Source: Patescibacteria group bacterium (lineage in GTDB: Bacteria; Patescibacteriota; Patescibacteriia; UBA1558; GWA2-36-10). From it: 64,000 nt of DNA. The position numbers were made by a program, and so were the translations under genes. The notes under the pieces were generated by a model, which saw only the letters and a list, made by a program, of their open reading frames with translations, did no database searches and was not told the origin of the DNA. This document shows positions 6,694-62,877 of this stretch, piece by piece (within the stretch, counting starts at the first letter, position 1; the number at the start of each line of letters is the position of its first letter). Location of the stretch: contig JBAZKN010000002.1 of assembly GCA_041650755.1 (NCBI GenBank), positions 5,030 through 69,029 on the forward strand. The letters are read 5' to 3'.

Positions 6694-7239
6694 TTAGTAG
6701 TCAATACCCGGTCTGGCAATCAAGCCCTGGCTGATGTAGTGTTTTTTGGCATTCATTTCGGTCACCAAATCCGCCAGATCCACGATTTCTTGGGGGCAAT
6801 AGCGCCCTGTCAAAATCAGCTCCAAGTTTTTTGGTTTTTGCTTGATCAAGATAAGGATATCGTCGCAATTTAGCAGGCCAGTTTTTACCGTGGTATTTAT
6901 TTCATCCAGTATCAGTAAATCAAAATTTTTTTTGAACCATAGTTTTGCCTGTTTGATGGCCGCAGCTGCTCCTTTGATGTCGCCAACCTGATTTTTGAAA
7001 CGGAAGCCCTTATTTTTTGACAGGCGCGGTAGACCGAAAGCGCAATAATCTATGTTTAGGTGCTTTATCTTGTCCAGGATTTTTCTTTCACTATAATAAT
7101 CGCCGCCTTTATCAAAATATATGATGCCCACCTTTAGTCCTTGTCCTAAGGCGCGGATAGCCAATCCTAAAGCAGCTGTGGTTTTACCTTTGCCGTGGCC
7201 AGTATAGACATGGATTTTTCCTAATTTATTATTTGACAT
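6694..7239 (-). CDS. cobO: Cob(I)alamin adenosyltransferase (CobA/CobO/BtuR family)
   Basis: P-loop VYTGHGKGKTTAALGLAIRALGQG is typical of BtuR/CobO. Start taken at MSNNK (7239). The 17 upstream codons in the ORF track are GC-rich sequence belonging to the adjacent island. Confidence 0.8.
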   Translation of the reverse strand: MSNNKLGKIHVYTGHGKGKTTAALGLAIRALGQGLKVGIIYFDKGGDYYSERKILDKIKHLNIDYCAFGLPRLSKNKGFRFKNQVGDIKGAAAAIKQAKLWFKKNFDLLILDEINTTVKTGLLNCDDILILIKQKPKNLELILTGRYCPQEIVDLADLVTEMNAKKHYISQGLIARPGIDY

Positions 7240-7304
7240 AAAGTCAGCATTTGTGTTTAAATTTTGAGGTCCCCCGGCTGTTCTTTTCATCAGGGAGGGC
7301 AGCC

Positions 7305-7475
7305 ATGCATTGGTGGCAGACTCGGCCTTTTTGGGTCACATTCTGTGTGGCCATCGGCGCGGTCATGATCTGGCGTATCCAGCATCACGTCTTTGACGTC
7401 ATCGGCGGTTTGTTTATCGCCCTTGGCATAACCATTGCCCTAATCAAGGACAAGGAAGGGAGAAGATGGAGATGA
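7305..7475 (+). CDS. Small membrane protein (56 aa), high-GC cassette C gene 1
   Basis: SD AGGGAGGG 5 nt before the ATG at 7305. Two hydrophobic segments. GC about 60%. Overlaps the next ORF by 10 nt (ATGGAGATGA). Confidence 0.5.
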   Translation: MHWWQTRPFWVTFCVAIGAVMIWRIQHHVFDVIGGLFIALGITIALIKDKEGRRWR

Positions 7476-7834
7476 ACGAAGGCGGCGCGTATCGCTACTT
7501 TTGGCCACTAATGGTCACACTGACGGGCGCGATCATTGTCCTATTCTCGGTTGGCGAGTCGAACCTCGTCTGTTTCATCGGCGCGCTGGTGGCTATCTCG
7601 GGCCTGATCTTCTTTCTGGCCAGGTCTCGCCTGTCCGCCACCCGGACCGTGATTCCAATCAACTGGTTTGCACTAGCGACAATGCTGGCGCTCTATCTCT
7701 GGACCCACGGTGGCCTGGAGGTTTCAACCGGCGATTGGCTGGTCAGCCTCTTGTTGGCTTTGGTGGGTACAGCTGTGCTCTGCTTTTTGCTATTGCTGAC
7801 CGGTTTTTGGATCGCGATCAGCCGTCGTCTATGA
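7466..7834 (+). CDS. Membrane protein (122 aa, 4 TM), cassette C gene 2
   Basis: SD AAGGAAGGGAG upstream. GC3-rich codons. Four hydrophobic helices. Confidence 0.55.
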   Translation: MEMNEGGAYRYFWPLMVTLTGAIIVLFSVGESNLVCFIGALVAISGLIFFLARSRLSATRTVIPINWFALATMLALYLWTHGGLEVSTGDWLVSLLLALVGTAVLCFLLLLTGFWIAISRRL

Positions 7835-7857
7835 TCCGAGTAGACGGAGGTGTGGAT

Positions 7858-7992
7858 ATGCTACAGGAGTTTTTGAAGCAATTGACCCAGTTGCGGTCAG
7901 TCTACATCGTGATGGCCGCGACAATCCTGCTCTTGTTCGCAATCTGGGCAGGGTGTGATTATCTGCCTCGCATTAGGGCGCGGCGACGCTAG
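7858..7992 (+). CDS. Small single-TM protein (44 aa), cassette C gene 3
   Basis: SD GGAGG 7 nt before the ATG at 7858 (MLQEFLKQLTQLRSVYIVMAATILLLFAIW...). Confidence 0.45.
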   Translation: MLQEFLKQLTQLRSVYIVMAATILLLFAIWAGCDYLPRIRARRR

Positions 7993-8767: not shown

Positions 8768-8796
8768 TTGACATTTTTGTGCCATCAGTATAAAGT
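8768..8796 (+). promoter_or_regulatory. sigma70-like promoter (TTGACA ... TATAAA/TAAAGT) in AT-rich DNA, just before the high-GC cassette D
   Basis: ttgaca tttttgtgccatcag tataaagt. The GC-rich ORF starts 80 bp downstream. Confidence 0.4.
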
Positions 8797-8877
8797 AATA
8801 CGTCGTATAGTCAGGAAACTTTGCCAGTGGCTACAAGTGTTCGTTCTGGCCATGTACACACGAGACAAGGAGGCACC

Positions 8878-9210
8878 ATGAAGAAGAAGTCTGCTTTGCT
8901 TGCCATGACCACGGATCACCCCGAATGGGGCAAGTTCATGGCCCGCCTGCATGGTCCAAGGGGGTGCAATGCTCGTCAGAAGAAGGGCGTGGGGACCATC
9001 TACACCTGTGGGCATGAGTCTGATCGTCCTCGCATCAGGGCAATTCTCCAGGAGATGGGGGATGTCGATATCCCTCATACGATGGGGTGCTTCACGAAGC
9101 GGGGCCTCATGTGCGACTGCGCGGTCGCCCGCAGCGGCATCGCGCCCGCGCCGAAGCGGGTGCTGCCAGAGCAGCGTTCGTGGTGGGAGATCATGATGTC
9201 GCGACCGTAG
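8878..9210 (+). CDS. Cys/His-rich small protein (110 aa), cassette D gene 1
   Basis: Perfect SD caAGGAGGcacc before the ATG at 8878. Strong GC3 periodicity. Motifs GCNAR..., CGHESD, HTMGC, LMCDC suggest metal binding. Terminator-like hairpin downstream. Confidence 0.6.
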   Translation: MKKKSALLAMTTDHPEWGKFMARLHGPRGCNARQKKGVGTIYTCGHESDRPRIRAILQEMGDVDIPHTMGCFTKRGLMCDCAVARSGIAPAPKRVLPEQRSWWEIMMSRP

Positions 9211-9527
9211 GCTTGCCTTTAGCCGTCCACTGGGACCCTTCGAGGGTTCTGTGGGCGGTGTTTTTTTATTTTTCAATTATTTTTTTCTTGCCACCTTTTT
9301 ACCCTTCAACTCCCCCTCGACTTGGTTCGACTACGCTCACCACAAGTCGCTCGGGGTCAGACAACACGGTTTTTTAACGTGGCTAGTCGCTGCCAAATTT
9401 TAAGTTTTTCTAAGGGCGGGGTCGTTTGATTTATTTTTTAATCAAATTTTCTAAGTATAATTATTATAGAAAACATCCTGAGAGGGGGCGGGGATGCGTC
9501 GGGTGCATCCCCGAGAAGACTGGTGAT

Positions 9528-9713
9528 TCAGTACTTGCGATAAGGGTGCTCAGGCCCAGGGCCGCCGTGCTTGATCGGCTCGCCGTTCATTGGCCAGCGG
9601 CATCGTGGGCACTTGCGGAATGGAGGAGGATTGTTCACATCCTCGTGGCTGGTGTCGGTGTATAGACATCCAACGTTAGAGCACGCCCAAGTGTAATTTG
9701 GCGGAGGGAACAT
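9528..9713 (-). CDS. Zinc-ribbon-like mini-protein (61 aa), cassette D gene 2, convergent with gene 1
   Basis: SD aAAGGAGaaagacc before the ATG. CxxxxC ... CPRC spacing. An 8-bp perfect hairpin GGGGATGC/GCATCCCC lies just past the stop. Confidence 0.55.
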   Translation of the reverse strand: MFPPPNYTWACSNVGCLYTDTSHEDVNNPPPFRKCPRCRWPMNGEPIKHGGPGPEHPYRKY

Positions 9714-16248: not shown

Positions 16249-16968
16249 ATGGACAAAGCGTTGTTGGAACAGGTGGCCGGGCGACTAGACGAGAAAGTCG
16301 CCGTGGCCCAACTACTGGTGGTGCACATGCTCGCTTCTGACCCTCCTTCATCCGAGGTTGATATGCTGGCCATTCACGGACTCTCGGCCGGCATGTACCA
16401 GAGCGGGAATCTCCTGGAGTGCGCTGCCGAGCTCTGGCGTTCAGGGCTTGCCAGCCACATGGCAGTGGTCGGCGGTGACGGCAGTCCGACGGGCCAGTCG
16501 GCTCCGGGAGCATCCTGGGTCGGGTCCAGCTTTCTGATCGAAGAGCTGGCCAAGCGCGAAGTCCCCCAAGACCAGATCATCGTGATGGATCCCATCACCC
16601 ACACCAAGGAGGAGGCTTACGCCATCGTCCGGGCGGCCATGAAGCACGGGTACCGGAGCGTGATGAGCGTAACGGTGCCTTACCATGGCCCCAGAGTGCT
16701 CTCCTGCCTGGTCGCGGTGATGAAAGAGTTGGGCTACTGGATCGAGTGGCACATGATGGTGCCGCCCAAGGTCAACTGGACCCTGGAGATGGTCGCTTCC
16801 CAGGGCAAGGGCACGACCAACTCCCTGTTCGCGGCCATGGACGATGCCGCCAAGGTCCAGAAGTACGTGGACAACAGTTTCGGTGCTTCCTACCCGGAGG
16901 TGATCTACTACCTGCTCAATCGTGCTCGGATCGTCGAGCACCAGCAGTGGGATTTCCCTGGGGCGTAA
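16249..16968 (+). CDS. DUF218 (YdcF/ElyC/SanA)-like protein, high-GC cassette E
   Basis: SD aAAGGAGGcctc ATG. GC about 62%. Motifs VVGGDGS, THTKEEAYAI and TVPYHGPRV align with the DUF218 GG, NTxENA and TSxxHMxRA boxes. Confidence 0.5.
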   Translation: MDKALLEQVAGRLDEKVAVAQLLVVHMLASDPPSSEVDMLAIHGLSAGMYQSGNLLECAAELWRSGLASHMAVVGGDGSPTGQSAPGASWVGSSFLIEELAKREVPQDQIIVMDPITHTKEEAYAIVRAAMKHGYRSVMSVTVPYHGPRVLSCLVAVMKELGYWIEWHMMVPPKVNWTLEMVASQGKGTTNSLFAAMDDAAKVQKYVDNSFGASYPEVIYYLLNRARIVEHQQWDFPGA

Positions 16969-17070: not shown

Positions 17071-17136
17071 AATTTACCCTGTTAAATAACTCCGCTTAGC
17101 GGAGTTGCCGCGCGGCGGCATTTAACAGGGTAAATT
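17071..17136 (+). repeat. Structured 66-bp element, copy 1
   Basis: 17-bp perfect outer inverted repeat aatttaccctGTTAAAT / ATTTAACagggtaaatt enclosing hairpins aactccgc-ttag-gcggagtt and gccgc-gcg-gcggc. Ends 21 nt before the DUF2207 ATG. Confidence 0.7.
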
Positions 17137-17157
17137 TGTAAGATTAATAAAGTATTT

Positions 17158-18925: not shown

Positions 18926-18950
18926 GAAAAAAGAGTCCGTTGCCGGACTC
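18926..18950 (-). terminator. Intrinsic terminator for the minus-strand small ORF
   Basis: gagtccg ttgc cggactc with a T-run on the minus strand. Confidence 0.6.
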
Positions 18951-18975
18951 TCAAGGCAGAGGCCCCTAGTCGTTA

Positions 18976-19131
18976 TTAGTGACTCACGCTCATGGCATCG
19001 TTGATGCCATAGCCCAGCAGACATATTCCCGATATGATGATTATCACTAGCACTAGGACGATTCCGATCTTGCTAGAGCGGGACTCACTCCGCCAAAACG
19101 CGTTGAGTAGGATTTCTGATTTTTTAGGCAT
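18976..19131 (-). CDS. 51-aa hydrophobic peptide (type I toxin-like) with strong SD; moderately GC-rich micro-cassette F
   Basis: ggaAAGGAGGgcc ATG, then MPKKSEILLNAFWRSESRSSKIGIVLVLVIIIISGICLLGYGINDAMSVSH. Not in the ORF track (below 60 aa). Followed by the terminator above. Confidence 0.4.
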   Translation of the reverse strand: MPKKSEILLNAFWRSESRSSKIGIVLVLVIIIISGICLLGYGINDAMSVSH

Positions 19132-22248: not shown

Positions 22249-22253
22249 TTTAT

Positions 22254-23924: not shown

Positions 23925-24959
23925 ATGAGCGGGACAGTTCGTCTAGTCAAGAAAATCGTGACTCATGTCAAGCCCCATCTGGATGAGCTGGTGGCCATTT
24001 GGCTGCTCGTCCGGTGGGGGGAGAAACACTTCCCCGGCATCAACACTGTGCCAGTAGAGGTCTGGCGCAAGGGGTTGGAGTCCGCCGACGGCCGCTCCTT
24101 TGAGGAGCATGAGGACGAAGGCACGATGTTCATCGGGATTGGCGGCGGCCAGTTCGATGAGCACCCGACCAACGGCACTGACGATCTGTCTGGTGAGTGC
24201 GCGGCCACTCTGGTCGCCAAGCGTCTGGGCATCCAAGACGACCCGGCTCTCGAAAGGATTCTGGACTTCGTTCGTCGGATTGACACCAAAGGTGGCGCCA
24301 ATCCTTGGGACATCTCGGCTGTCGTTAAGGCGGCCAACGAAGTCGGCAAAGGTCTGCCGGAGCTGCTCACCTGGGTGTTCTTGGCGCTTGATGCCAAGTA
24401 TGAACAGCAGGTCAAGTTCCTCGAGGCAGAGGCCGATGCCAACATCGCCCAATGGGATACGGTCGGCTCTGTGCGGGTAGCTACCGCAGAATCTGACAAC
24501 CAGCAGGTCTACAAGGTGCTTTTCACTAGGGGTGCGGCGGTGGCGATTGTTCGCCGGCGTCAGGATGGCCGAGTGGCCATCTTCACGCAGAAGCGTGACA
24601 ACATCAGGCTCACTGACGCTGTCAGGATCATCCGCCGCTTGGAGCAGAAGGCTCGCGGCGATGTCAGGACTACCAACTGGAAGGAGCTGGCAGCGCCTGG
24701 TTCCATCGACGCTGTGGCGCGCTGGTACTATCTTAAGGAGGGTGAAATGCTGCTGAACGGCAGCGATACCCACCCCGATACGCCGGCTACCGGTCTGTCC
24801 CTTTCCACCATCCGTCAGGCGGTCATCTTGGCCCTTTCTGGCGAGATGATCTGCTCGCAGGCCAATGTCTGCGACGGGAAGTCCTGCAAGTGGTATCAGC
24901 TCGGCCTGAGCCGGTGCCAGACAATTCGCTACAGAATGTCGAGTGGCCAATCGCAGTAG
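23925..24959 (+). CDS. MYG1/UPF0160-like metal-dependent hydrolase, high-GC cassette G
   Basis: N-terminal KKIVTHVKPHLDELVAIWLL fits the MYG1 T-H-x-x-x-H-x-D-E signature. GC about 60%. SD present. Terminator downstream. Confidence 0.45.
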   Translation: MSGTVRLVKKIVTHVKPHLDELVAIWLLVRWGEKHFPGINTVPVEVWRKGLESADGRSFEEHEDEGTMFIGIGGGQFDEHPTNGTDDLSGECAATLVAKRLGIQDDPALERILDFVRRIDTKGGANPWDISAVVKAANEVGKGLPELLTWVFLALDAKYEQQVKFLEAEADANIAQWDTVGSVRVATAESDNQQVYKVLFTRGAAVAIVRRRQDGRVAIFTQKRDNIRLTDAVRIIRRLEQKARGDVRTTNWKELAAPGSIDAVARWYYLKEGEMLLNGSDTHPDTPATGLSLSTIRQAVILALSGEMICSQANVCDGKSCKWYQLGLSRCQTIRYRMSSGQSQ

Positions 24960-33514: not shown

Positions 33515-33958
33515 ATGACATGGGAATATATAGCAGGTTTTTTTGATGGCGAAGGATCCATAGTTTACAATGGTAGTGGTTTTAGATTAACAATCGCCCA
33601 AACGAACCTTACGGTGTTAGATAGTATAAGTAGGTTTACAAAAATTGGTCAGGTTATAAAGGTCACCAAACGTCAGGTTCACTGGAAAGATAGTTGGGTA
33701 TATTATATAAGCAAACAGGAAGACATTTTATTTTTTGTGAGACATATCCAAAATTTTTCAATAGTTAAAAAACAAAAAATAAATATAGTATTGCCGAGGC
33801 TCATAAAAGCAGTTTCCAATAATAGAGATAGGATTTTAAAGAGACAACTATTGACTAAATCAGCTAAAGCTCTGAGAAAAAATGGTTTAAGTTATAGAGA
33901 AATAGGCAAGAGATTAAATATGGATTTTGGACAAGCGCGTCGTTTGATAAAAAGATAA
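33515..33958 (+). CDS. Free-standing LAGLIDADG homing endonuclease with C-terminal HTH
   Basis: MTWEYIAGFFDGEGSIVYNGSGFRL: single LAGLIDADG motif (IAGFFDGEGS). C-terminal GLSYREIGKRLNMDFGQARRLIKR. 147 aa. No flanking intron or intein context found. Confidence 0.7.
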   Translation: MTWEYIAGFFDGEGSIVYNGSGFRLTIAQTNLTVLDSISRFTKIGQVIKVTKRQVHWKDSWVYYISKQEDILFFVRHIQNFSIVKKQKINIVLPRLIKAVSNNRDRILKRQLLTKSAKALRKNGLSYREIGKRLNMDFGQARRLIKR

Positions 33959-33970
33959 GATTATTTACAT

Positions 33971-34048
33971 GGTGGCAGTAGCTCAGTTGGTTAGAGCATC
34001 GGGTTGTGGTCCCGGCGGTCGTGGGTTCGAGACCCATCTGCCACCCCA
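33971..34048 (+). tRNA. tRNA-His (anticodon GTG) with encoded G-1 and CCA
   Basis: G-GTGGCAGTAGCTCAGTTGGTTAGAGCATCGGGTTGTGGTCCCGGCGGTCGTGGGTTCGAGACCCATCTGCCAC-C-CCA. Confidence 0.85.
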
Positions 34049-34086
34049 TCGAAGATCCTGAGCGAACGTAGTGAGTCGAAGGATCA
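34043..34086 (+). repeat. 44-bp direct repeat, left copy (overlaps the last 6 nt of tRNA-His); attL-like
   Basis: accccatcgaagatcctgagcgaacgtagtgagtcgaaggatca, identical to 35761-35804. Each copy is followed by a similar hairpin plus T-run. Confidence 0.85.
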
Positions 34087-34350
34087 AAAAACACCCAATT
34101 TTCTTTGAGTGTTTTTTGTTCGTTATAATTTGACTAAATATATAATAATTGCTATAGTATCTTGTTGTTTTTCATATATTTCGTAGTCTGCTTTTTGTTT
34201 ATTTATATGAGTAAAAAGCAGGCTAAGAAAACGCTTAGTCTTTGTTCCGTTAAATAATTTTTTGTGTACGAAGGGGGGTGAACCAGACCGTTGTTCTGTC
34301 GGCAATCTCGTGTGCTAGGGTTCTGGATTCATTCAAGGAGGTATGGGAGG

Positions 34351-35613
34351 ATGTCGACCATGCTGCAATCCCAGGTCATCGAAAGGCTTCTGAAGTACGC
34401 GCGGGTCAACACCCGTTCGCTTCAGGCCATGCCGGGCGAGGAGCTCCCTCACCCAAGCAGTCCGGAGCAGGTGGTCTTGATCGACCTGTTGCTCTCCGAG
34501 CTGTCCGACATGGGGGTGCCGTCCAACTGGACCAGGAAGCTCGAAGACGCTTCGTTCCTGATCGAGATCCCCGCGACCGAGGGCCACGAGAACGCCCCGC
34601 ACGTCGTTCTGGCTGCGCACGTGGACACCTACTTCGGCTGTCCCGGCGGGGCCAACCCGATCATCCACGAGTACCAGGGCGGCGACATCGCGCTCCCGAA
34701 CGACAACGTGGTCATCCCGGCCTCGGACCTTGCCGGTCTCGAGGGCAAGGGGATCATCACCGCTGACGGCACCACGCTGCTCGGTGGCGACGACAAGTGC
34801 GGAGTCGCGGCCATCATGACCTTCATCGAGAGCATGCTGGCTCACAATCTGCCGCACGGTCCGCTGACCATCTGGATCTGTACCGACGAGGAGGTCGGCG
34901 AGGTCGGCGTGAAGTTCCTGCCTTCGGGCACGGCGGAGAAGTGGGACTTCTTCTGGACCGTGGACGGGGAGCGTCTCGAAGTCGTGGACATTGGCTGTTT
35001 CTACGGCTCCTCGGTCGACGTCGAGTTCATCGGCAACGATTCCCATCCGGGTGTCTCCGGCCACTCGCTCAAGCCCGCCCACTACGCCGCCTGTCGCTTC
35101 GTGGATCAGCTCGGCCTGGCGCCGACGCCCTGGCGGACCAGCGGCGAGGAGTCGTTCATCTACGTGCCCTCTCTGCCCGCCTGCACGGCCGGCAAGTCGA
35201 CGATCAAGGTCTTCCCGCGTACCTTCCGCCAGGAAGAGATCCCTGAGATGCGGGAGACGATCCGGCTCGTGGCCGAGGAGGCGGCTTCGCACTACGGCGT
35301 CCAGGCCGTGGTCAGTGAGGCCAAGATCCTCTACGTCTCCACCGAGGTCGCGATCGACCAGAACCGCCACCTGTTGCAGCCGGGTCTGGACGCGATCCGG
35401 AAGTTCTGGGTCGAGCCCAAGCTGCATCGCGTGCGCGCTGGCACCGACGGCGCCATGCTGAACATGACGTACCCGAAGATCCCGTCGCCGAACATGGGAG
35501 CCGGGGCCCGCAACTTGCACGGCGTTCGCGAGTTCGTCGTGCGGGAAGAGCTCCAGCTCGTCCCGGAGATCATCTCCGAGATGATCGGAATCTACGCGAC
35601 CATGTCGCGCTGA
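34351..35613 (+). CDS. M20-family peptidase (peptidase T/PepT-like tripeptidase), high-GC cassette H cargo
   Basis: HVDT, GGDDKCGVAAIM, TDEEVGE, GTDGA and NLHGVREF motifs of M20B. GC about 62%. SD AAGGAGG 9 nt before the ATG at 34351. Confidence 0.75.
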   Translation: MSTMLQSQVIERLLKYARVNTRSLQAMPGEELPHPSSPEQVVLIDLLLSELSDMGVPSNWTRKLEDASFLIEIPATEGHENAPHVVLAAHVDTYFGCPGGANPIIHEYQGGDIALPNDNVVIPASDLAGLEGKGIITADGTTLLGGDDKCGVAAIMTFIESMLAHNLPHGPLTIWICTDEEVGEVGVKFLPSGTAEKWDFFWTVDGERLEVVDIGCFYGSSVDVEFIGNDSHPGVSGHSLKPAHYAACRFVDQLGLAPTPWRTSGEESFIYVPSLPACTAGKSTIKVFPRTFRQEEIPEMRETIRLVAEEAASHYGVQAVVSEAKILYVSTEVAIDQNRHLLQPGLDAIRKFWVEPKLHRVRAGTDGAMLNMTYPKIPSPNMGAGARNLHGVREFVVREELQLVPEIISEMIGIYATMSR

Positions 35614-35760
35614 TCCGCCATCGTGAGAGGTTCGCAACCCAAACTGCCGTCTCAACAATCCTTGCAGGTGAGAGATGGCGTTTTCATTTATTTAAAATTG
35701 TAGATAGGGTATATGATAAGTATTTGAAATTAGTATAGTCCCGATACGTTTTACGACGCG

Positions 35761-35804
35761 ACCCCATCGAAGATCCTGAGCGAACGTAGTGAGTCGAAGG
35801 ATCA
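35761..35804 (+). repeat. 44-bp direct repeat, right copy; attR-like
   Basis: Perfect match to 34043-34086. Followed by tcaccc..gggtgg ttttttg terminator-like hairpin. Confidence 0.85.
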
Positions 35805-35868
35805 CAAAATCACCCTGAGCGTAGTCGAATGGGTGGTTTTTTGATATAATGGAGAAAATAAATTCACC

Positions 35869-37836: not shown

Positions 37837-38949
37837 TTATTTATTGTGTCCTTTACCATTGCCAGATGATTGTTTTGGCATAGCTTGTTTTAAGTTGCCA
37901 TTGAACTTAGCCATTTTTTGTTGTAGTCTATTTTTTAGAATATGGATTGGGTTGCGATCATTTTCACGATTTTTTTCACACCAATCATCGCACTTGCATT
38001 CACATTGGCATCTTTGATTGTTGTTTCTACCCAACGTGGTTACTGAAATAATACTAGAGTTTGGGGAGACATTGCCAGCCGCATCATAGGCTTTGACAAA
38101 GTAAGAGTAGGTGGTAGATGCAGTTAGACGGATGTCGTTATAATGGGGATTTTTAACTTGAGCAATTTGGATTCCATCTCTAAATACTTTATAGCCAACC
38201 ACAGCTAGATCATCGGTTGAAGTTGACCATTTTAGATTGACGTGCTGGAAAGAGACCACATGGGCGACTAAATTAGTTGGTGCATTAGGTATAGTCGTGT
38301 CAGTGGGGTTTGCCAAGGTTATAGCCGAGACAGTATTGGAGGCAGTTGATATGTTGCCAGCCGCATCATAGGTTTTTACAAAAAAGCTATAGGTAGTAGA
38401 AGCAGTTAGACCAGTGTTATTGAAAGTAGTATCGGTTGATGTGGCAATTTGTATATTATTTCTAAATATTTTATAGCCAGCTACTCCAATATTATCAGTA
38501 GCAGCGGTCCAGCTCAAATTTATTTGGGAAGAAGACACTGTGTTGGCGACTAGGTTAGTTGGCGCACTGGGCACAGTCAAATCAACGGGCATAGCCAGAG
38601 TCGTAGTTGATACTGGATTAGAAAAATCCGATTTATTACCAGCCACATCATAGGCCTTAATAGCATAGGTATAAGTAGTAGAGGCTGTCAGTCCCAAGTC
38701 GTTGAATGTGGTGGTAGCTACATTGGCGACTCCAAGACCATTTCTAAATATACTATAACCAGCTACTCCAATATTATCAGTAGCAGCGGTCCAGTTCAAA
38801 TTTATTTGGGAGTTTGAAACTGCAGTGGCCGCTAAATTAGTTGGTATAGATGGAGGAGTGGTGTCATCCACAGCTAGAGCGGACTTGATAAGTGTCAAAG
38901 AGGAGTAGGCAGCTACGAGTACGCCCAAGATTAAAAGTATTTTTTTCAT
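37837..38949 (-). CDS. Secreted protein with four fibronectin type III-like repeats and a C-terminal Cys/charged tail
   Basis: Four repeats of about 90 aa (PTNLxAxxVSxxQINLxWTAATDNIGVAGYxIFRNG). Signal peptide. Tail QRCQCECKCDDWCEKNREND. Confidence 0.7.
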   Translation of the reverse strand: MKKILLILGVLVAAYSSLTLIKSALAVDDTTPPSIPTNLAATAVSNSQINLNWTAATDNIGVAGYSIFRNGLGVANVATTTFNDLGLTASTTYTYAIKAYDVAGNKSDFSNPVSTTTLAMPVDLTVPSAPTNLVANTVSSSQINLSWTAATDNIGVAGYKIFRNNIQIATSTDTTFNNTGLTASTTYSFFVKTYDAAGNISTASNTVSAITLANPTDTTIPNAPTNLVAHVVSFQHVNLKWSTSTDDLAVVGYKVFRDGIQIAQVKNPHYNDIRLTASTTYSYFVKAYDAAGNVSPNSSIISVTTLGRNNNQRCQCECKCDDWCEKNRENDRNPIHILKNRLQQKMAKFNGNLKQAMPKQSSGNGKGHNK

Positions 38950-56131: not shown

Positions 56132-56914
56132 ATGGCAAAAATAGGTTTAGTGTTGAGCGGCGGTGGGACAAGGGGCCTAGCCCATATCGGTGCTTTAAAA
56201 ATTTTACAGGCTTTGGGCATAAAATTTGATTATGTGGCTGGTTGTAGCATCGGTGCCATCATCGGTGCTTTTTATGCGGCCGGCAAGAGCGCCAAAGAGA
56301 TGGAGGATTTTATTTTATTAAACAAGGTTTATAAATTATTAAATTTTTCCTTATCATCGCTGGGCATAAACAAGACAAGTAATTTAGAGAAGGCCATTTT
56401 TGATGTTATCAAAGTAAAAAAATTTGAAGAATTAAAATTGCCGCTTTTTATCAATGCTACCAACTTGAGCCAAGGCCAGGAAGTTATTTTTAAATCGGGT
56501 GATTTATTTGCCGCCATTAGGGCCAGCATTGCCGTGCCGGGAGTATTTGCTCCGGCAAAAATAAAGGGGGACTTTTATGTTGATGGCGGAGTCTTAAACC
56601 AAAATCCATTTGCCATTTTGCCCAAAGATACCAGTCATTATATCATTATTAATGCTTCACCTTTTGAAAAAATGGGGTATAAGAAAAAATTAAATTTAGT
56701 AGATATTTTGGCAGCCAGTATAAAAATGATGCAAAACGAGATTAGTTATTTGAAGCTTTCCCAAGTGCCAGACGACAAGGTAGTATTGATTGAGCCAGAT
56801 TTGGAGGGGCGCAGTCTTTTGCAGGGCACTAAACATTTTCATGATTTGATAAGAAAGGGAGAACAGGCAGCCCTAGCTAAGCGGTCAGAAATAAAAAATA
56901 AATTTAATATCTAA
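56132..56914 (+). CDS. Patatin-like phospholipase (canonical)
   Basis: GGGTRG oxyanion box, GCSIG nucleophile elbow and the DGG catalytic Asp. Confidence 0.8.
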   Translation: MAKIGLVLSGGGTRGLAHIGALKILQALGIKFDYVAGCSIGAIIGAFYAAGKSAKEMEDFILLNKVYKLLNFSLSSLGINKTSNLEKAIFDVIKVKKFEELKLPLFINATNLSQGQEVIFKSGDLFAAIRASIAVPGVFAPAKIKGDFYVDGGVLNQNPFAILPKDTSHYIIINASPFEKMGYKKKLNLVDILAASIKMMQNEISYLKLSQVPDDKVVLIEPDLEGRSLLQGTKHFHDLIRKGEQAALAKRSEIKNKFNI

Positions 56915-56924
56915 AAATAAAAAA

Positions 56925-56962
56925 CCGCCCGGACCAAGTTCGGCCAGCGGGCGAGGAGGTGG
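56925..56962 (-). terminator. Intrinsic terminator for the small minus-strand gene
   Basis: ccgcccgctggccgaacttggtccgggcgg followed by tttttattttt on the minus strand. Confidence 0.7.
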
Positions 56963-56969
56963 GGTGAAA

Positions 56970-57182
56970 CTATCTTGCCAGACGGGCGCGGATCGGACCG
57001 CGAGGATAGCGGCGTGGATTGCGGCGGCGCAAGCCTTCTCCCAAGCCCTCGGCTTGGGTTTTGGATCTTGCCCATAAGTTGGCCACAAACACTTCTTGGC
57101 CTTGGGCGTCTACATAGACATTGTAATACTGCTTTTTGTTCTTGTCTGGAGAAGGACGGCTGGTGTTGGAGCATCTAGACAT
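56970..57182 (-). CDS. Small basic protein (70 aa), high-GC micro-cassette I
   Basis: SD GGGGAGG 8 nt before the ATG. MSRCSNTSRPSPDKNKKQYYNVYVDAQGQEVFVANLWAR... GC about 58%. Has its own terminator. Confidence 0.45.
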   Translation of the reverse strand: MSRCSNTSRPSPDKNKKQYYNVYVDAQGQEVFVANLWARSKTQAEGLGEGLRRRNPRRYPRGPIRARLAR

Positions 57183-57367: not shown

Positions 57368-57814
57368 ATGCAGATTATTAGTTCAAAATTTGCCAATCAA
57401 CAAATCATACCTAGTGACTATACTTGCGATGGCCGCGACGTTAATCCGCCACTGGAGTTTAAAGAGGTACCAGAAAATACCAAAAGTTTGGTGTTGATCA
57501 TGGACGACCCTGATGCTATGAAGCCGGCCGGTAAGGTTTGGGATCATTGGATAATTTTTAATATTCCGCCGGACATCAGAACAATAAGAGAAGGCGAGGA
57601 ACCGCTTGGTGTTCATGGCTTAGGTACCAGTAACAACTTAAAATATCATGGGCCTTGCCCACCAGACGGTCAGCATCGTTATATTTTTAAGTTGTACGCC
57701 TTGGACACCAGTTTAGATTTGCCCCAGTCTAGTACCAAGGGCCAATTAGAGCAGGCGGTGTCCGGGCACATTCTGGCCCAGGCGGAACTAGTTGGTTTGT
57801 ATCAGAGAAGATGA
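57368..57814 (+). CDS. YbhB/YbcL-family PEBP (Raf kinase inhibitor-like) protein
   Basis: DGRDVNPPLEF ... DDPDA ... GKVWDHWIIFNIPPD ... HRYIFKLYALD. Confidence 0.8.
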   Translation: MQIISSKFANQQIIPSDYTCDGRDVNPPLEFKEVPENTKSLVLIMDDPDAMKPAGKVWDHWIIFNIPPDIRTIREGEEPLGVHGLGTSNNLKYHGPCPPDGQHRYIFKLYALDTSLDLPQSSTKGQLEQAVSGHILAQAELVGLYQRR

Positions 57815-58452
57815 TTTTTTAGTAATTCAATAACTTCTTGATCGGTCGTTTGCTCAAATTCCTCATAAAAATTTCCCACAGCGCCAAAGTAGTCTGGCGC
57901 CTCCAGATAAACCAATTTATCAACTAATTTTTTTATTGTTTGAGCTGTGTCGCGGGCAATCACCGGCACGGCTACAATTATTTTTTTTGGTTTTTGTGGG
58001 CCGACAGCCAAAAGGGAGGCTCGCATAGTAGCCCCGGTAGCTATACCATCATCTACTAAAATAGCGGTTTTATTTTTTAGTATCAGCGGCGGCCGATTGG
58101 CTCGGTATATTTTTTGGCGTCGCGCGGCTTCTTGCTTGGCGGCGGCTATGCTTTGCTCAAGATAAACATCAGATATGCCGTAAGCAACGATTGAACCATG
58201 ATCCAGGAAAGCTTCTCCGGCCAGAGTGACAGCACCAATAGCAAATTCTGGGTTTTGCGGGGCACTGATTTTTCTGGGTACGATGATATCGAGCGGTAAA
58301 GCTAATTTTTTGGCAACTGCCGCGGCGACTACTACACCGCCACGCGGCAAACCTAAGATGATTGCCTGCCGGTCGTTTTGGCAGGCCTTTAATTTGTCAG
58401 CTAAGTGCCGGCCAGCCGTTTGGCGATTGGTAAATATCATAATTTTTGCCAA
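57802..58452 (-). CDS. Type I phosphoribosyltransferase-family protein
   Basis: PRPP-binding loop ILVDDGIATGATM. 216 aa. Confidence 0.65.
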   Translation of the reverse strand: MAKIMIFTNRQTAGRHLADKLKACQNDRQAIILGLPRGGVVVAAAVAKKLALPLDIIVPRKISAPQNPEFAIGAVTLAGEAFLDHGSIVAYGISDVYLEQSIAAAKQEAARRQKIYRANRPPLILKNKTAILVDDGIATGATMRASLLAVGPQKPKKIIVAVPVIARDTAQTIKKLVDKLVYLEAPDYFGAVGNFYEEFEQTTDQEVIELLKNHLL

Positions 58453-59225
58453 TATTTTTGAGTGGCACGGGGATTTTGTAAGTGGAGACCAGATTGGACA
58501 TCTCTACCCAAGCCACCTTGACGCTTTATTTGGTGGGCTAGAGTATGGCGGAGGATTTGCGGGGTAATGATAAGCGGCGGCCTTAGTCGGCGGGCATATT
58601 TATCAATAATCCTTTCTACTGATCTAACCGACAGATGATTGACGACTGGATTTTTTTGCGCCCGATCAAAGTTTATAAATAACCAGGGGCTATTGTCGTG
58701 CCGCCAAGCTAAATATTTTTCCAAGTCCGCCCAAGTGAGAGGATCCAAATGAATGCTTTGCCCGTTGATAAATATTTCTTGTTTAATAGTATCGATATCG
58801 TGGCGTTTTAATTTGATTAGTTGGCTGACTTTTAAGCCGCTGTAGTAGAGTATTTCCAGCATAGCTTTATCGCGCCGGCCGATCAGGCTTGTTTGATCAG
58901 AATCAGCAGCCAAAAAAGCAGTCAGCTGTTTTTGGCTTAGCACTTTGACGGCCGGCGCTTGATAGGAAAGCAAGGCAAACTTAAATTTGACCTGTAAAAA
59001 CTCCAGATAGTCGTTGATGATAATAAAATGCAGGTTGAGGCTGCCGACATTTTGGCGCGAGCGTAATAATCGCTCTTGATATTTTTTTAGATTAGCAGTG
59101 TTTATTTTTTGTTTGCCCAAACTAAGCAGAAATTTATCTATATGCCAGAGATAATTTTTAATGGTCAAAGGTTTTAGGCCACGTTTTTTGAGCAGATTTT
59201 GGTATTTGTTTATATTTTTTTCCAT
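58437..59225 (-). CDS. Tyrosine site-specific recombinase (XerC/XerD-like, short form)
   Basis: N-terminal core-binding-like LKPLTIKNYLWHIDKFL, R...HxxR box (ILRHTLAHQ), and C-terminal GGLGRDVQSGLHLQNPRATQKY with the catalytic Tyr. The start codon is 2 nt from structured-element copy 2. Confidence 0.75.
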   Translation of the reverse strand: MEKNINKYQNLLKKRGLKPLTIKNYLWHIDKFLLSLGKQKINTANLKKYQERLLRSRQNVGSLNLHFIIINDYLEFLQVKFKFALLSYQAPAVKVLSQKQLTAFLAADSDQTSLIGRRDKAMLEILYYSGLKVSQLIKLKRHDIDTIKQEIFINGQSIHLDPLTWADLEKYLAWRHDNSPWLFINFDRAQKNPVVNHLSVRSVERIIDKYARRLRPPLIITPQILRHTLAHQIKRQGGLGRDVQSGLHLQNPRATQKYWQKL

Positions 59226-59226
59226 A

Positions 59227-59292
59227 AATTTACCTTGTTAAATAGTTCCGCAAGGCGGAACTGCCGCTTTGTGGCATTTAACAGAGTAAATT
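59227..59292 (+). repeat. Structured 66-bp element, copy 2
   Basis: aatttaccttGTTAAAT ag ttccgc-aag-gcggaa ct gccgc-ttt-gtggc ATTTAACagagtaaatt. Same architecture as copy 1, with compensatory changes in the inner stems. Confidence 0.7.
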
Positions 59293-59388
59293 TTATCATA
59301 AAACGACACAAAAAGAAAAACTCGCCGCGTGAGTCCACCTGATGGTGGCGCAGCGAGCTTGAGGGAGAGGGGGGGGTGGGCGGGGTGC

Positions 59389-59868
59389 TTATGTCGAAGG
59401 AGGGTCGACAGCCCTGGTAAGGAAGATGAGGTTTCCCATTCGCCCGTTAAGTCGAGCGATTACAGAGATCGAGACGTCGCGCAGGCAATAGCCCTGGTCG
59501 AGCTTGTGCAGCATGAAATCGTCGATGCGGCCATAGACGCTGGTCGGCAGGATGGTCGTGTTGCCCCTAGTGACCACTGTGTCATCCGGGCTGTAGCAAT
59601 CACCAGTGATGTTGTAGCTGATTTCAATCAGGCCAACTCGCGTCTTGATCTGCTCTTGGTGTGCGTTGCAGTAGTTGACTGTGGCATTCAGACCTTGGTC
59701 GTAGTAGACCATCAAGGCCGCATTCATCATCTGCGCGGCGGAATCTTGGATGGCGGCGATCTCGTCTTTGTTGGGTCCGGTGTGGTGGGCGATTGCGATG
59801 ATGATCACAACCAAGAGTAGTAGGGAGGCAATCGCTGCCGACATATTGTTTCGGTTCATGGGAGTCAC
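59389..59868 (-). CDS. Secreted/membrane-anchored Cys-containing protein (159 aa), high-GC cassette J
   Basis: SD gAAAGGTGactcc ATG. Signal/anchor AAIASLLLLVVIIIAIAHH. Five Cys. GC about 58%. Terminator hairpin after the stop (about 59330-59385). Confidence 0.55.
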   Translation of the reverse strand: MTPMNRNNMSAAIASLLLLVVIIIAIAHHTGPNKDEIAAIQDSAAQMMNAALMVYYDQGLNATVNYCNAHQEQIKTRVGLIEISYNITGDCYSPDDTVVTRGNTTILPTSVYGRIDDFMLHKLDQGYCLRDVSISVIARLNGRMGNLIFLTRAVDPPST

Positions 59869-59939: not shown

Positions 59940-59968
59940 ATAATAACATATATTTAATTATTTGTCAA
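59940..59968 (-). promoter_or_regulatory. Near-consensus sigma70 promoter TTGACA-N17-TATTAT driving cassette J
   Basis: Minus strand: ttgaca aataattaaatatatgt tattat. A roughly 70-nt leader with the hairpin cccctgcccc/gggg follows. Confidence 0.5.
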
Positions 59969-60105: not shown

Positions 60106-60468
60106 ATGTTAGACAAGAAGAAAAAGATTAAAATCATCGAAAAGTTCAAAACCCACAAAAATGACACCGGTTCTCCGGAGGTGCAAATTGCTATTTTGAC
60201 AGAAGAGATCAAAGAACTGACCAAGCATTTGCGGGAAAATAAAAAAGACTTTTCTTCTCGCCGCGGCCTACTGGCCAAGGTATCTTTGCGCCATCGTCTC
60301 TTGCGCTATTTGGAGCGGGAAGACGAAAAGCGTTTTGTTAAACTCATCAAGGCTTTGGGTTTAAAGTTTGCCAAAAAGGAAAAACAGGATATTTTGGGAG
60401 ACGAGATGATCTTGGGTGCTCCAGAAGAAGCCGAGACCAGCGAAGACAGCAAAGAAATAAAAGAATAA
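60106..60468 (+). CDS. rpsO: Ribosomal protein S15 with ~30-aa acidic C-terminal extension
   Basis: TGSPEVQIAILTEEIKELTKHL ... SRRGLLAKVSLRHRLLRYL. Extension KFAKKEKQDILGDEMILGAPEEAETSEDSKEIKE. A 90-nt structured leader lies upstream. Confidence 0.85.
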   Translation: MLDKKKKIKIIEKFKTHKNDTGSPEVQIAILTEEIKELTKHLRENKKDFSSRRGLLAKVSLRHRLLRYLEREDEKRFVKLIKALGLKFAKKEKQDILGDEMILGAPEEAETSEDSKEIKE

Positions 60469-60651: not shown

Positions 60652-62877
60652 ATGTCGGTACGACAATTTAAGACCGAGGTAGCCGGAAAAGAGCTTACAG
60701 TAGAGATCGGTAAGCTGGCTCAACAAGCTCATGGCTCTTGCACTGTCATTTATGGTGAGACAGTAGTTTTAGCAACTGCTGTGACTAGCTCAACCCAGCG
60801 CGAGGGCATAGATTATTTCCCTTTGCTGGTTGATTATGAAGAAAGGCTTTATGCTGCCGGTAAAATAAAGGGTTCGCGCTTTATCAAGCGTGAAGGCCGG
60901 GCTACCGATGAAGCAATTCTCACCTCTCGTTTGATTGATCGGTCCATCAGGCCATTGTTTAAAGAATCAGAACGGAATGACGTGCAGGTAGTGGTGACAG
61001 TTTTATCTTATGACGGCATCAATGAGCCTGATTTTCCCAGCCTGATAGCCACTTCTATAGCCTTGGGCATTTCACCGATTGTCTGGGGTGGGCCACTGGC
61101 CGGCATTAAGCTTGGTAAAATCGGCGAGGAGTGGGTAATAAACCCCAGCGTCGAGGCTAAACAAAAAAGCGAGTTTGATTTACTGGTTGCCGGCACAGCT
61201 GATCAAGTGGTAATGATTGAAGCCGGAGCCAAACAAGTCCCAGAAGACACCATGATAGCTGCTATTGAATTTGCCGGTAAGCATATTCAGCGTCTGATGC
61301 CCTTTATTGAGGGCGTTATTCGGGATGCTGGCTTACCCAAAATTCAGCCCAAGGTAGATGGAGATGCCGAAGCAGCTCAGCAGATGATTCATGATAAGGT
61401 TTTGGCATTTTTGCAAAGCAAAGATTTATTAGCTTGTTTTCAGCCCGATAAATCAAAGATGAAAACAGCCATTGAGGACATTAAAGCTGAGCTTGATCAG
61501 GTATTAAAAGTTGATAATGAAGTTTCTAAAGATGCTCGAGCCATGGGGGTAGCCATGCTCGATTCTATGTTAGAGAAATCTTTCAAATCTTTGGTTTTGG
61601 ATAAAAAACAGCGTCCAGATGGCCGCGCTTTTGATGAAATCAGACCACTATCTGCTGAAGTGGGGATTTTGCCCCGCACTCATGGCAGTGGTTTATTTGC
61701 TAGGGGCGAAACCCAGGTTTTGTCTATAGTGACTTTGGGTGCGCCGGGAGATCAGCAGCTGCTTGATTCAATGGAAGAATCTGGTTCCAAGCGCTATATG
61801 CATCATTATAATTTTCCGGGGTTTTCTACGGGTGAAGTAAAGCCTTTGCGCGGTCCGGGTCGTCGGGAGATCGGCCACGGCGCCTTAGCTGAAAAAGCCC
61901 TAGTGCCAGTTTTGCCGGATGAGGAGAGCTTTCCCTATACTATCCGGGTTGTTTCTGAAGTATTGAGCTCAAACGGTTCATCTTCACAAGCCTCTATCTG
62001 TGGTTCCACCTTATCCTTGATGGACGCTGGTGTGCCAATTATTGCGCCGGTAGCTGGTATTGCCATGGGTTTGGTAGTTGATGATAATGACCCCAAAAGA
62101 TATGAGATTCTGACAGATATCCAGGGCATTGAAGATCATTCTGGCCATATGGATTTTAAAGTAGCGGGCACCGAAGCTGGCATTACCGCCATTCAATTGG
62201 ATATAAAATTGGGCGGCATTAGCTATCAGGTTGTCAAAGAGACCATTCAGCGGGCCCGTGAAGCTAGAATGAAGGTTTTGTCGGTCATGAAGCAGGCAAT
62301 TGCCGCTCCGAGAGCGGAACTTTCTCCTTATGCGCCGCGGATTATTACTTTGCGCATTGATCCGGATAAAATTCGGGAAGTTATTGGTACTGGTGGTAAA
62401 ATCATCAATGAAATTATTGATAAATGTAATGTCCAGATCGACATTGAGCAGGATGGTTTGGTATTAATTACTTCTACCGACCAAGTTGGCGCTCAAAAGG
62501 CCAAGCAGTGGATAGAAAACATTGTCAAAGATATTACGGTGGGTGAAATTTATGAAGGTAAAGTCACCCAAATAATCAAAGACAAAAATAATGGCAATGA
62601 AATAGGCGCTATTGTAGAATTGTTGCCAGGTAAAGATGGTATGGTTCATATTTCCCAAATTTCTCACTCAAGAATTGCCAAGATCACTGACGTGGTAAAT
62701 ATTGGCGACACAGTCAGAGTCAAGGTAATGGATGTGGATACTGCCAATAATCGCATTAGTTTATCCATGAAAGAGCTTGTGCCCCGTCCAGCCGGCTTGC
62801 CGGAGCATGACACCAGAGATTTTCGGCCTCGTCGTCCCGGCGGTCCAGCCAAAAAGCCATTTTTTAAGCGCTCATAA
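60652..62877 (+). CDS. pnp: Polynucleotide phosphorylase
   Basis: Two RNase PH domains, KH and S1 domains (GEIYEGKVTQIIK...), and a basic C-terminal tail. 741 aa. Classical rpsO-pnp synteny. Confidence 0.9.
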   Translation: MSVRQFKTEVAGKELTVEIGKLAQQAHGSCTVIYGETVVLATAVTSSTQREGIDYFPLLVDYEERLYAAGKIKGSRFIKREGRATDEAILTSRLIDRSIRPLFKESERNDVQVVVTVLSYDGINEPDFPSLIATSIALGISPIVWGGPLAGIKLGKIGEEWVINPSVEAKQKSEFDLLVAGTADQVVMIEAGAKQVPEDTMIAAIEFAGKHIQRLMPFIEGVIRDAGLPKIQPKVDGDAEAAQQMIHDKVLAFLQSKDLLACFQPDKSKMKTAIEDIKAELDQVLKVDNEVSKDARAMGVAMLDSMLEKSFKSLVLDKKQRPDGRAFDEIRPLSAEVGILPRTHGSGLFARGETQVLSIVTLGAPGDQQLLDSMEESGSKRYMHHYNFPGFSTGEVKPLRGPGRREIGHGALAEKALVPVLPDEESFPYTIRVVSEVLSSNGSSSQASICGSTLSLMDAGVPIIAPVAGIAMGLVVDDNDPKRYEILTDIQGIEDHSGHMDFKVAGTEAGITAIQLDIKLGGISYQVVKETIQRAREARMKVLSVMKQAIAAPRAELSPYAPRIITLRIDPDKIREVIGTGGKIINEIIDKCNVQIDIEQDGLVLITSTDQVGAQKAKQWIENIVKDITVGEIYEGKVTQIIKDKNNGNEIGAIVELLPGKDGMVHISQISHSRIAKITDVVNIGDTVRVKVMDVDTANNRISLSMKELVPRPAGLPEHDTRDFRPRRPGGPAKKPFFKRS

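Follow-up and report, generated by a model that had tools for sequence, protein, structure and literature searches.

In a 64,000-nt stretch from a Patescibacteria group bacterium (hereafter the window; GC 43%), the gene for a Xer-related tyrosine recombinase abuts a palindromic repeat that folds as a three-way junction (element copy 2), upstream of which lies a small expression unit (cassette J). We consider it probable that this locus is one conserved Xer-like gene with two independent insertions and not an integron-like capture machine. Its parts fit known kinds, namely a Xer-related recombinase clade, a repeat family resembling miniature inverted-repeat transposable elements and repetitive extragenic palindromes (MITE/REP), and flexible gene islets. 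A sequence-only reading had proposed a minimal cassette-capture locus of the integron type. Its minus-strand order of cassette J, element copy 2 and recombinase is correct, with the recombinase promoter lying between cassette J and the element, and the element does abut the recombinase gene, whose ATG follows 1-3 nt after it depending on how the element end is defined. The proposed capture locus itself did not hold up: the recombinase has no IntI domain, the element is not recombinase-specific, and the cassettes are self-promoted and common at recombinase-free sites. Nothing found here shows recombinase, element and cassette J to be one functional unit. As a housekeeping-type gene with what are probably two unrelated insertions, the locus cautions against reading adjacency as mechanism.

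In the scenario that we favour, the recombinase would be a chromosomal gene inherited vertically within a Parcubacteria/Patescibacteria clade, always divergent from rpsO-pnp, and would act as a single-recombinase Xer in chromosome dimer resolution or a similar housekeeping process. An element copy would have landed between its -10 box and its ATG, placing a structured leader on the recombinase mRNA, and the element would have spread in a transposition-like manner through the intergenic regions of these bacteria. Cassettes would be exchanged by homologous recombination in shared flanks following DNA uptake.

Synteny and promoter of the recombinase gene

The recombinase gene (58437-59225, minus strand, 262 amino acids) is divergent from rpsO (ribosomal protein S15; 60106-60468, plus strand), a conserved syntenic anchor that is followed by pnp (60652-62877). 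A one-genome-per-species scan found the same divergent arrangement in 31/31 relatives, indicative of a fixed chromosomal gene. The relatives' loci, labelled L001-L031, form with the window an orthologous set of 32, and their polynucleotide phosphorylase (PNPase) identity to the window of 67-81% indicates that the synteny extends over a broad clade. No relatives of the recombinase were found in a search of viral contigs, and the 64-kb window encodes no second tyrosine recombinase. The sequence-only reading had offered, as an alternative, the chromosomal Xer of the organism with a dif-derived site in its 5' region; the synteny and the closeness to XerA described below agree with the first part of this proposal, but the element is a dispersed repeat and very probably not the gene's own site. 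GC skew is positive throughout the recombinase region with no change of sign, suggesting that the gene is not at the replication terminus. A scan for dif-like palindromes (11-N6-8-11 with TAA/TTA inner arms) returned 0 in the window against 0.7 expected by chance, a result that says little about the whole genome.

In nearly all relatives the gene is preceded by TTTGTGTCGTTTTATG(T/A)TAAAAT with the ATG 6-8 nt downstream, and to judge from this arrangement the recombinase of most relatives appears to have an extended -10 promoter and a leaderless mRNA. The window promoter (59290-59312, minus strand), delimited by comparison with the upstream regions of the 31 relatives, consists of the TTTGTGTCGTTTTATG motif and an extended -10 (TGaTAAAAT), and its -10 box (TAAAAT, 59295-59290) directly adjoins the element. 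The TTTGTGTCGTTTTATG motif occurs once in the window, at this promoter; as a candidate recombination core it was ruled out, being absent from the other cassettes and present only at the recombinase promoter. A GTGTCG motif (59297-59312) lies 8 nt upstream of the extended -10 and is found at the same position in ~20 of L001-L031, including relatives whose proteins share only 40-50% identity. It sits too near to serve as a -35 box and could be a binding site or operator.

Recombinase protein

The protein matches Pfam Phage_integrase (3.4e-14) and has an N-terminal SAM-like domain (SAM_1). Its best NCBIfam model is XerA_Arch (111.9 bits, cut-off 220), with XerD at 68.6 bits (cut-off 329.6) and XerC at 63.7 (cut-off 335), which places it below the curated equivalog cut-offs of XerA, XerC and XerD. 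The integron-integrase model TIGR02249 reaches 28.5 bits against a cut-off of 265 and aligns only to residues 6-154, the N-terminal half, while the recombinase aligns end to end with XerA without insertion; the additional domain of IntI is absent, as the sequence-only reading had expected from the length. The closest solved structures by sequence are the archaeal XerA proteins 4a8e and 5hxy (7.6e-15), followed by XerD. An AlphaFold model (mean predicted local distance difference test score 92) has XerA 5hxy and 4a8e as its top Foldseek matches (probability 1.00), with the Tn1549 integrase, VchIntIA (2a3v), Cre and XerH at lower ranks, and predicts a simple two-domain fold of core-binding and catalytic domains.

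The R..HxxR..Y catalytic set previously attributed to this protein is not present in full. Alignments to XerA 4a8e, XerA 5hxy and XerD 1a0p place Lys132 at the Arg-I position (SGLKVSQ opposite GLRVSEL) and Gln223 at His-II (PQILRH opposite PHxLRH), leaving only Arg226, His248 and Tyr258 as canonical active-site residues. The recombinase therefore departs from the Xer catalytic pentad R-K-H-R-H plus Tyr nucleophile at K132 and Q223, and it has no obvious beta-hairpin Lys. In an alignment of 18 family members (37-54% identity), K132 and Y258 never vary and Q223 and R226 hardly ever do, indicating that the substitutions are conserved and not a sign of decay. A profile search of 1.8 billion representatives delineates a compact family of ~11 representatives above 160 bits, beyond which scores fall to ~147 bits and belong to generic Xer-like proteins of 280-320 amino acids; among the nearest outgroup proteins, both R/K at Arg-I and H/Q at His-II occur. 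A ‘Cand’ subgroup of Xer-related recombinases, thought to replace Xer, has been described in candidate phyla (Smyshlyaev et al. 2021, PMC8138268), and possible membership of the present family in it is a lead. Purifying selection on Lys at Arg-I and Gln at His-II in a Xer-related clade raises the question of whether recombination is still catalysed in these reduced-genome bacteria.

Three-way-junction repeat family

Element copy 2 (59227-59293, no strand assigned; consensus core 59229-59290) has one further copy in the window. Element copy 1 (17071-17137, no strand assigned), to which it is 81% identical, lies 21 nt upstream of a DUF2207 gene and downstream of a GC-rich DUF218 cassette (16249-16968), with no recombinase nearby. 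Both copies fold as a Y with an outer stem of 15-17 bp, one hairpin of 7-8 bp and another of 5 bp, with z-scores of -5.3 to -9.0 over both copies and both strands, and no shuffled sequence folded equally well. Family members have the consensus TTYACCCTGTTAAAT-A-[ATTTCGCC nnn GGCGAAAT]-T-[GCCGC nnn GCGGC]-ATTTAACAGGGTRAA, a length of 62-65 nt (62-67 nt for the element at the recombinase) and 15-nt terminal inverted repeats, and conservation ends exactly at TTY and RAA.

An exact-pattern search of metagenome contigs recovered at least 120 stretches (719 kb) carrying the element, mostly from groundwater and sediment samples, and the following counts are from among the matches listed. Pairing holds in 94.9% of cells over 113 distinct copies and drops to 35-43% if the partner columns are shifted by 1-3. 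Individual helices have 92-99% of cells paired, the P1 stem is continuous, and the longer hairpin, P2, has compensatory changes in 7/7 pairs; the search pattern itself had set the inner stem and the GCCGC hairpin, which makes their invariance uninformative. Copies are intergenic in 93/115 cases, often in gaps of a few bases between co-directional genes, and their orientation relative to flanking genes is mixed (29 same, 18 opposite). None of the 120 element-bearing stretches encodes the recombinase family, rpsO or pnp. The third base from the element ends is asymmetric (T/G 42, C/A 32, T/A 19, C/G 2), a pattern expected if copies insert in both orientations at a TTYRAA-like target, or else if the inner arms switch orientation against ends that differ slightly. 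Selection for base pairing of the RNA at this position would not explain the pattern, and the transcribed strand has no U-G bias there (19 vs 13). Checks for strand-specific G-U and for orientation relative to genes gave no significant bias among the matches listed.

Rfam contains no match to the element, either at gathering thresholds (window and nine loci) or at E <= 10 (element), the output being limited to tRNAs and chance microRNA-like matches, and a search of viral contigs for the element returned none. It is best described as a palindromic repeat of MITE/REP type, unusual in its three-way-junction interior, and we regard the family as undescribed. This makes it a widespread 65-nt repeat of groundwater Parcubacteria, absent from Rfam, that is found within operons and directly upstream of 16S rRNA. 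No longer, transposase-bearing element with the same terminal repeats was found in the loci examined, which contain only small copies and a sister repeat family of 106-136 nt with related terminal inverted repeats, TTCACCC(T/C)GTTAGAAATT (L006 10005-10110 and 12580-12688; L012 5538-5673; L062 150-284; L094 10434-10551). The 136-nt sister element of L012, with related ends (ACCCTGTTAGAAATT), stands directly after the recombinase ATG, and the GTG at its end may serve as a new start codon.

At the recombinase, the window, L001 and L003 have the element between -10 box and ATG, and L024 probably carries it there too, an assembly gap following TTAACCCT. It is thus present at 3-4 of the 32 orthologous loci and absent from 28. 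In a PNPase tree, very close relatives differ in its presence (L001 vs L002, L003 vs L007/L010, L024 vs L013). Relative to the recombinase, the inner hairpins follow one order in L001 and L003 and the opposite one in the window. The integron core is GTTRRRY and the inverse core RYYYAAC, and the element stem holds GTTAAAT and ATTTAAC, which match these letters. The stem also contains TGTTAAAT, which is similar to the outer portion of the XerD arm (TTATGTTAAAT) of proteobacterial dif.

Several further placements of this and other repeats were observed. Element copies stand 3-10 nt upstream of the mature 16S rRNA 5' end (AGAGTTTGATCCTGGCTCAG) in L049 (367-437), L054 (1546-1616) and L072 (894-963), and a copy in L061 (1067-1115) directly follows an RNase P RNA-like sequence (GGGAGGAAAGTCCGAACAC). 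Tandem copies are found in L087, L082 and L037. Lone half-sites TTTACCCTGTTAAAT, consisting of one repeat arm with no partner, lie near the 3' end of pnp (L006 3007, L015 2605, L016 2997, L020 3042), and one more is at 22252 of the window on the minus strand. Other palindromic repeats, of the GTCATTGCGAGGAGC...GCTCGCAATGAC and TGTCATCCCGGA...TCCGGGATGACA types, are inserted on either side of the recombinase in several relatives (L007 4090-4200 and 6820-6930; L010 5010-5140; L011 1460-1560; L024 5800-5920; L028; L031 1250-1360).

Cassette J and the variable slot

Cassette J is a strain-specific, GC-rich orphan expression unit that fills a slot of variable content between the promoters of rpsO and the recombinase. 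Its components are largely as proposed by the sequence-only reading. The TTGACA-N17-TATTAT promoter (59940-59968, minus strand, read 59968-59940) has 11/12 matches and a TG-extended -10, the Shine-Dalgarno sequence (SD) is GAAAGGTGA, and the intrinsic terminator (59307-59360, minus strand) is a nested hairpin with a CCACCATCAGGTGG inner stem (59318-59360, -26.5 kcal/mol, z = -5.3) followed by a T-run (UUUUUCUUU). The open reading frame (ORF; 59389-59868, minus strand; GC 0.54-0.56) does encode the proposed 159 amino acids from the GTG at 59868, but an ATG at 59859 (156 amino acids) has the better position relative to the SD, and the NCBI annotation gives 151. The protein is predicted to be secreted on the basis of an N-terminal hydrophobic segment only. 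It has no Pfam or NCBIfam match, and a search of 5.8 billion clusters returned only itself, indicative of an ORFan.

The distance between rpsO and the recombinase is 155-205 nt, corresponding to an empty slot, in 15/32 loci, and 260-3600 nt in the other 17. The variable cargo expected by the sequence-only reading is therefore real, with different inserts at 17/32 loci. The bare, invariant locus that it had set against its own proposal is found in part: 15/32 loci have neither element nor cargo, whereas the 17 differ and the cassettes of a second subclade vary. One type of cargo consists of orphan ORFs of high GC, each equipped with a TTGACA-N17-TAnAAT promoter, an SD and a terminator (L001, L002, L007, L010, L011, L013, L015, L024, L027, L031 and the window), and the remaining inserts are further MITEs and, in two loci, ordinary genes. 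The cassette J promoter belongs to a TATTGACAAA(A)TA module that stands at the same position in clade relatives with other cargo, and within the window's clade the TATTGACAAAATA promoter occupies the same place before unrelated cargo in the window, L001, L002, L007, L011, L013, L024 and L031. L007 has four tandem cassettes, two of them common to L010, and a different small-ORF cassette in L007 and L010 carries the same terminator module as cassette J, with the core CCACCATCAGGTGGAYTCA and compensatory changes in its outer stem. In the second subclade (L004, L005, L006, L008, L012, L015) a cassette -35 box begins 0-2 nt past the recombinase stop and the cargo again varies. GC-rich stretches after the recombinase in L004, L006, L008, L012 and L015 were considered as structural RNA genes and rejected, as they have no Rfam match and are protein cassettes. 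In arrays upstream of the recombinase, a ~55-nt module (CCTTACAnnGTGTAAGG ... AAAGGAGTGAGTCAGACCAAGTACGAGG ... AAAATG) precedes each small ORF while the ORFs differ (L013 5297-5612; L024 5276-5610; L031 680-730).

Comparable units are present away from the recombinase. The window holds ~8 further GC-rich units (GC 0.54-0.61), scattered between native genes with no recombinase nearby (1383-2147, 7251-7992, 8785-9713, 16249-16968, 18930-19130, 23925-24959 and 56911-57174), each with an AT-rich sigma-70-type promoter, SD, ORF and terminator; their cargo includes an acyltransferase, a DUF218 protein, a beta-propeller-like protein and small membrane ORFs. Most window cassettes have no element, and most element copies are distant from any cassette or recombinase. 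Only two relatives of the DUF218 cassette were found. A homologue with 58% identity and a homologous TATTGACAATTT promoter ends a six-unit array of promoter-bearing small-ORF cassettes beside a CobA/CobO gene (L155 1789-4790), at a chromosomal site that differs from the window's. The CobO gene of the window also has cassettes beside it (6694-7992). Cargo common to several genomes at the recombinase is found at orthologous positions only, and cassette junctions revealed no repeated recombination site, the borders showing only promoter and terminator. A literature search for Patescibacteria integrons, MITEs and GC-rich islands returned nothing specific. These observations point to self-contained GC-rich orphan cassettes that turn over fast at a few chromosomal slots, both recombinase flanks included, which is possibly how small genomes sample new genes.

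Comparison with known systems and alternative explanations

Single-recombinase Xer systems (XerA/dif, XerH/difH, XerS/difSL) are similar in having a two-domain tyrosine recombinase of ~260 amino acids at a fixed chromosomal position. The present protein differs in its score (112 vs 220 bits) and in its Lys at Arg-I and Gln at His-II, and its gene is not at the terminus, where xerS/difSL sits, given that GC skew keeps its sign. Xer genes are conserved chromosomal genes and not borne by mobile elements, and the same is true here (31/31 with rpsO-pnp; none in viral contigs). Integrons (IntI, attI, attC) share with this locus a tyrosine recombinase beside a variable single-gene slot, a strong promoter at the head of the slot and a folded palindrome after the cassette. 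In integrons, however, intI is divergent from the cassette array, whereas here the recombinase lies downstream of the cargo in the same orientation, and integron cassettes are promoterless and each end in attC, whereas these carry their own promoter and terminator. The palindrome, unlike attC, is a dispersed repeat found mostly away from cassettes; attC sites have the order RYYYAAC...GTTRRRY with an unpaired central spacer and extrahelical bases, while the element has GTTAAAT...ATTTAAC in a fully paired stem. Acinetobacter pdif modules and integrative mobile elements exploiting Xer (IMEX, CTX-phi type) resemble the locus in idea only, as gene modules moved by the host Xer with no integrase of their own. 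The cassettes here lack flanking pairs of 28-bp XerC/D-type sites and element copies are not generally at cassette borders, so the IMEX-type locus also raised by the sequence-only reading finds no counterpart in borders made up only of promoter and terminator and in a window without dif-like sites.

Small palindromic repeats of bacteria, including Correia elements, RUP and REP/BIME, have been reviewed (PMC3184786, PMC2229807). The element resembles MITE/REP sequences in being short and multi-copy, with 15-nt terminal inverted repeats, intergenic location in both orientations and insertion polymorphism, in having a sister family with related ends and a different interior, and in the frequent transcription of copies within operons. 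It differs in its two-hairpin three-way junction in place of a simple stem-loop, in its asymmetric outer position, and in that no clear target-site duplication, transposase or REP-associated tyrosine transposase (RAYT) partner was found.

Several observations weigh against one conserved gene with two independent insertions. GC-rich islets are present in 17/60 recombinase-flanking intergenic regions vs 19/241 others (odds ratio 4.6, Fisher p = 7e-5), with intergenic regions set by native ORFs, and 9/12 strict promoter-plus-ORF cassettes in the relatives' loci flank the recombinase. Both tests ignore shared ancestry and some large ‘islands’ may be native genes, but they leave room for a recombinase-linked insertion hotspot. 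In 3-4 separate sublineages the element stands at exactly one site, between -10 box and ATG, a recurrence higher than a low-copy repeat would lead one to expect. Neither a target-site duplication nor an autonomous parent element was identified, and the mobility of the element is deduced from its distribution only. The housekeeping role of the recombinase is one that we infer, and Lys and Gln at the Arg-I and His-II positions could leave the enzyme with weak activity or none.

That the recombinase itself drives capture, a Xer-like protein inserting promoter-bearing cassettes beside its own gene in the manner of an integron or pdif module with cassette J as the current cargo, is in our judgement unlikely. 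It would account for the islet enrichment at the recombinase flanks, the conserved TATTGACAAAATA promoter with different cargo at one position within a clade, the four tandem cassettes of L007 with two common to L010, the cassettes of the other subclade that begin 0-2 nt after the recombinase stop, and the reuse of the cassette J terminator module with different cargo in L007 and L010. However, cassette junctions have no repeated recombination site, the window has no dif-like palindrome, and comparable cassettes or arrays stand at recombinase-free sites (the window islands and the CobO-adjacent arrays of the window and L155). Cargo sharing only at orthologous positions and the non-canonical active site also argue against it, and the islet test is not independent of phylogeny. 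We see a slim chance that this K/Q-variant enzyme is the engine of a Patescibacteria-specific acquisition system that places self-contained orphan cassettes preferentially beside its own gene, perhaps also mobilising the three-way-junction repeat with its GTTAAAT/ATTTAAC stem; if true, this would be a cassette system mechanistically distinct from integrons.

The two remaining alternatives give the element a function at the recombinase. It is highly improbable that it is the recombinase's own site, whether a folded dif- or attP-like sequence or an invertible switch controlling the gene. Adjacency in the window, L001, L003 and probably L024, the occurrence of both orientations there, the likeness of TGTTAAAT to the outer XerD arm and the fit of GTTAAAT/ATTTAAC to the integron core letters are consistent with such a site, but 28/32 orthologous loci lack the element and the 120 other element-bearing stretches among the matches listed have no recombinase nearby. 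In addition, copies lie in tight gaps within ordinary operons and directly 5' of 16S rRNA, the fully paired stem has no extrahelical bases or unpaired spacer, its GTT...AAC order is the reverse of attC, and the 33-nt interior would be too short for inversion by a conventional synapse. A selected cis-regulatory RNA, namely a structured 5' leader through which the recombinase mRNA would be controlled in its translation or stability, is distinctly unlikely. The element lies downstream of the -10 box and would be transcribed, a leaderless mRNA would gain a leader in which an AAGG near the ATG is partly sequestered, the structure is strongly conserved with covariation, and many copies among the matches listed end 5-15 nt before a start codon. 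These features are offset by the differing orientation at the recombinase (window vs L001/L003), by the mixed orientation of the family relative to transcription (29 vs 18) and the lack of U-G bias at the asymmetric outer position (19 vs 13), both among the matches listed, and by the fact that most orthologues function without the element.

Other features of the window

The recombinase gene is followed by a phosphoribosyltransferase gene of native GC (57802-58440, minus strand), the ATG of which overlaps the recombinase stop (ATGA); this neighbourhood is not kept in relatives. A 1.7-kb island at 33972-35809 (GC 0.62-0.64) contains an ORF for an M20-family peptidase (34291-35613, plus strand) and has at its borders two direct repeats of 52 nt (34040-34091 and 35758-35809), which are 96% identical and start in the 3' end of tRNA-His. 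With no integrase inside, the island looks like a minimal or decayed tRNA-integrated element; a 441-amino-acid minus-strand ORF in the island was considered as an integrase and rejected, the real gene being the plus-strand M20 peptidase. An ORF resembling a LAGLIDADG-type homing endonuclease (33515-33958, 147 amino acids, GC 0.32) is free-standing between tRNA-Arg and tRNA-His. Three tandem 282-nt repeats (38031-38844; 61-85% identity) lie within an ORF at 37837-38949 (minus strand) that probably encodes a repeat-domain surface protein.

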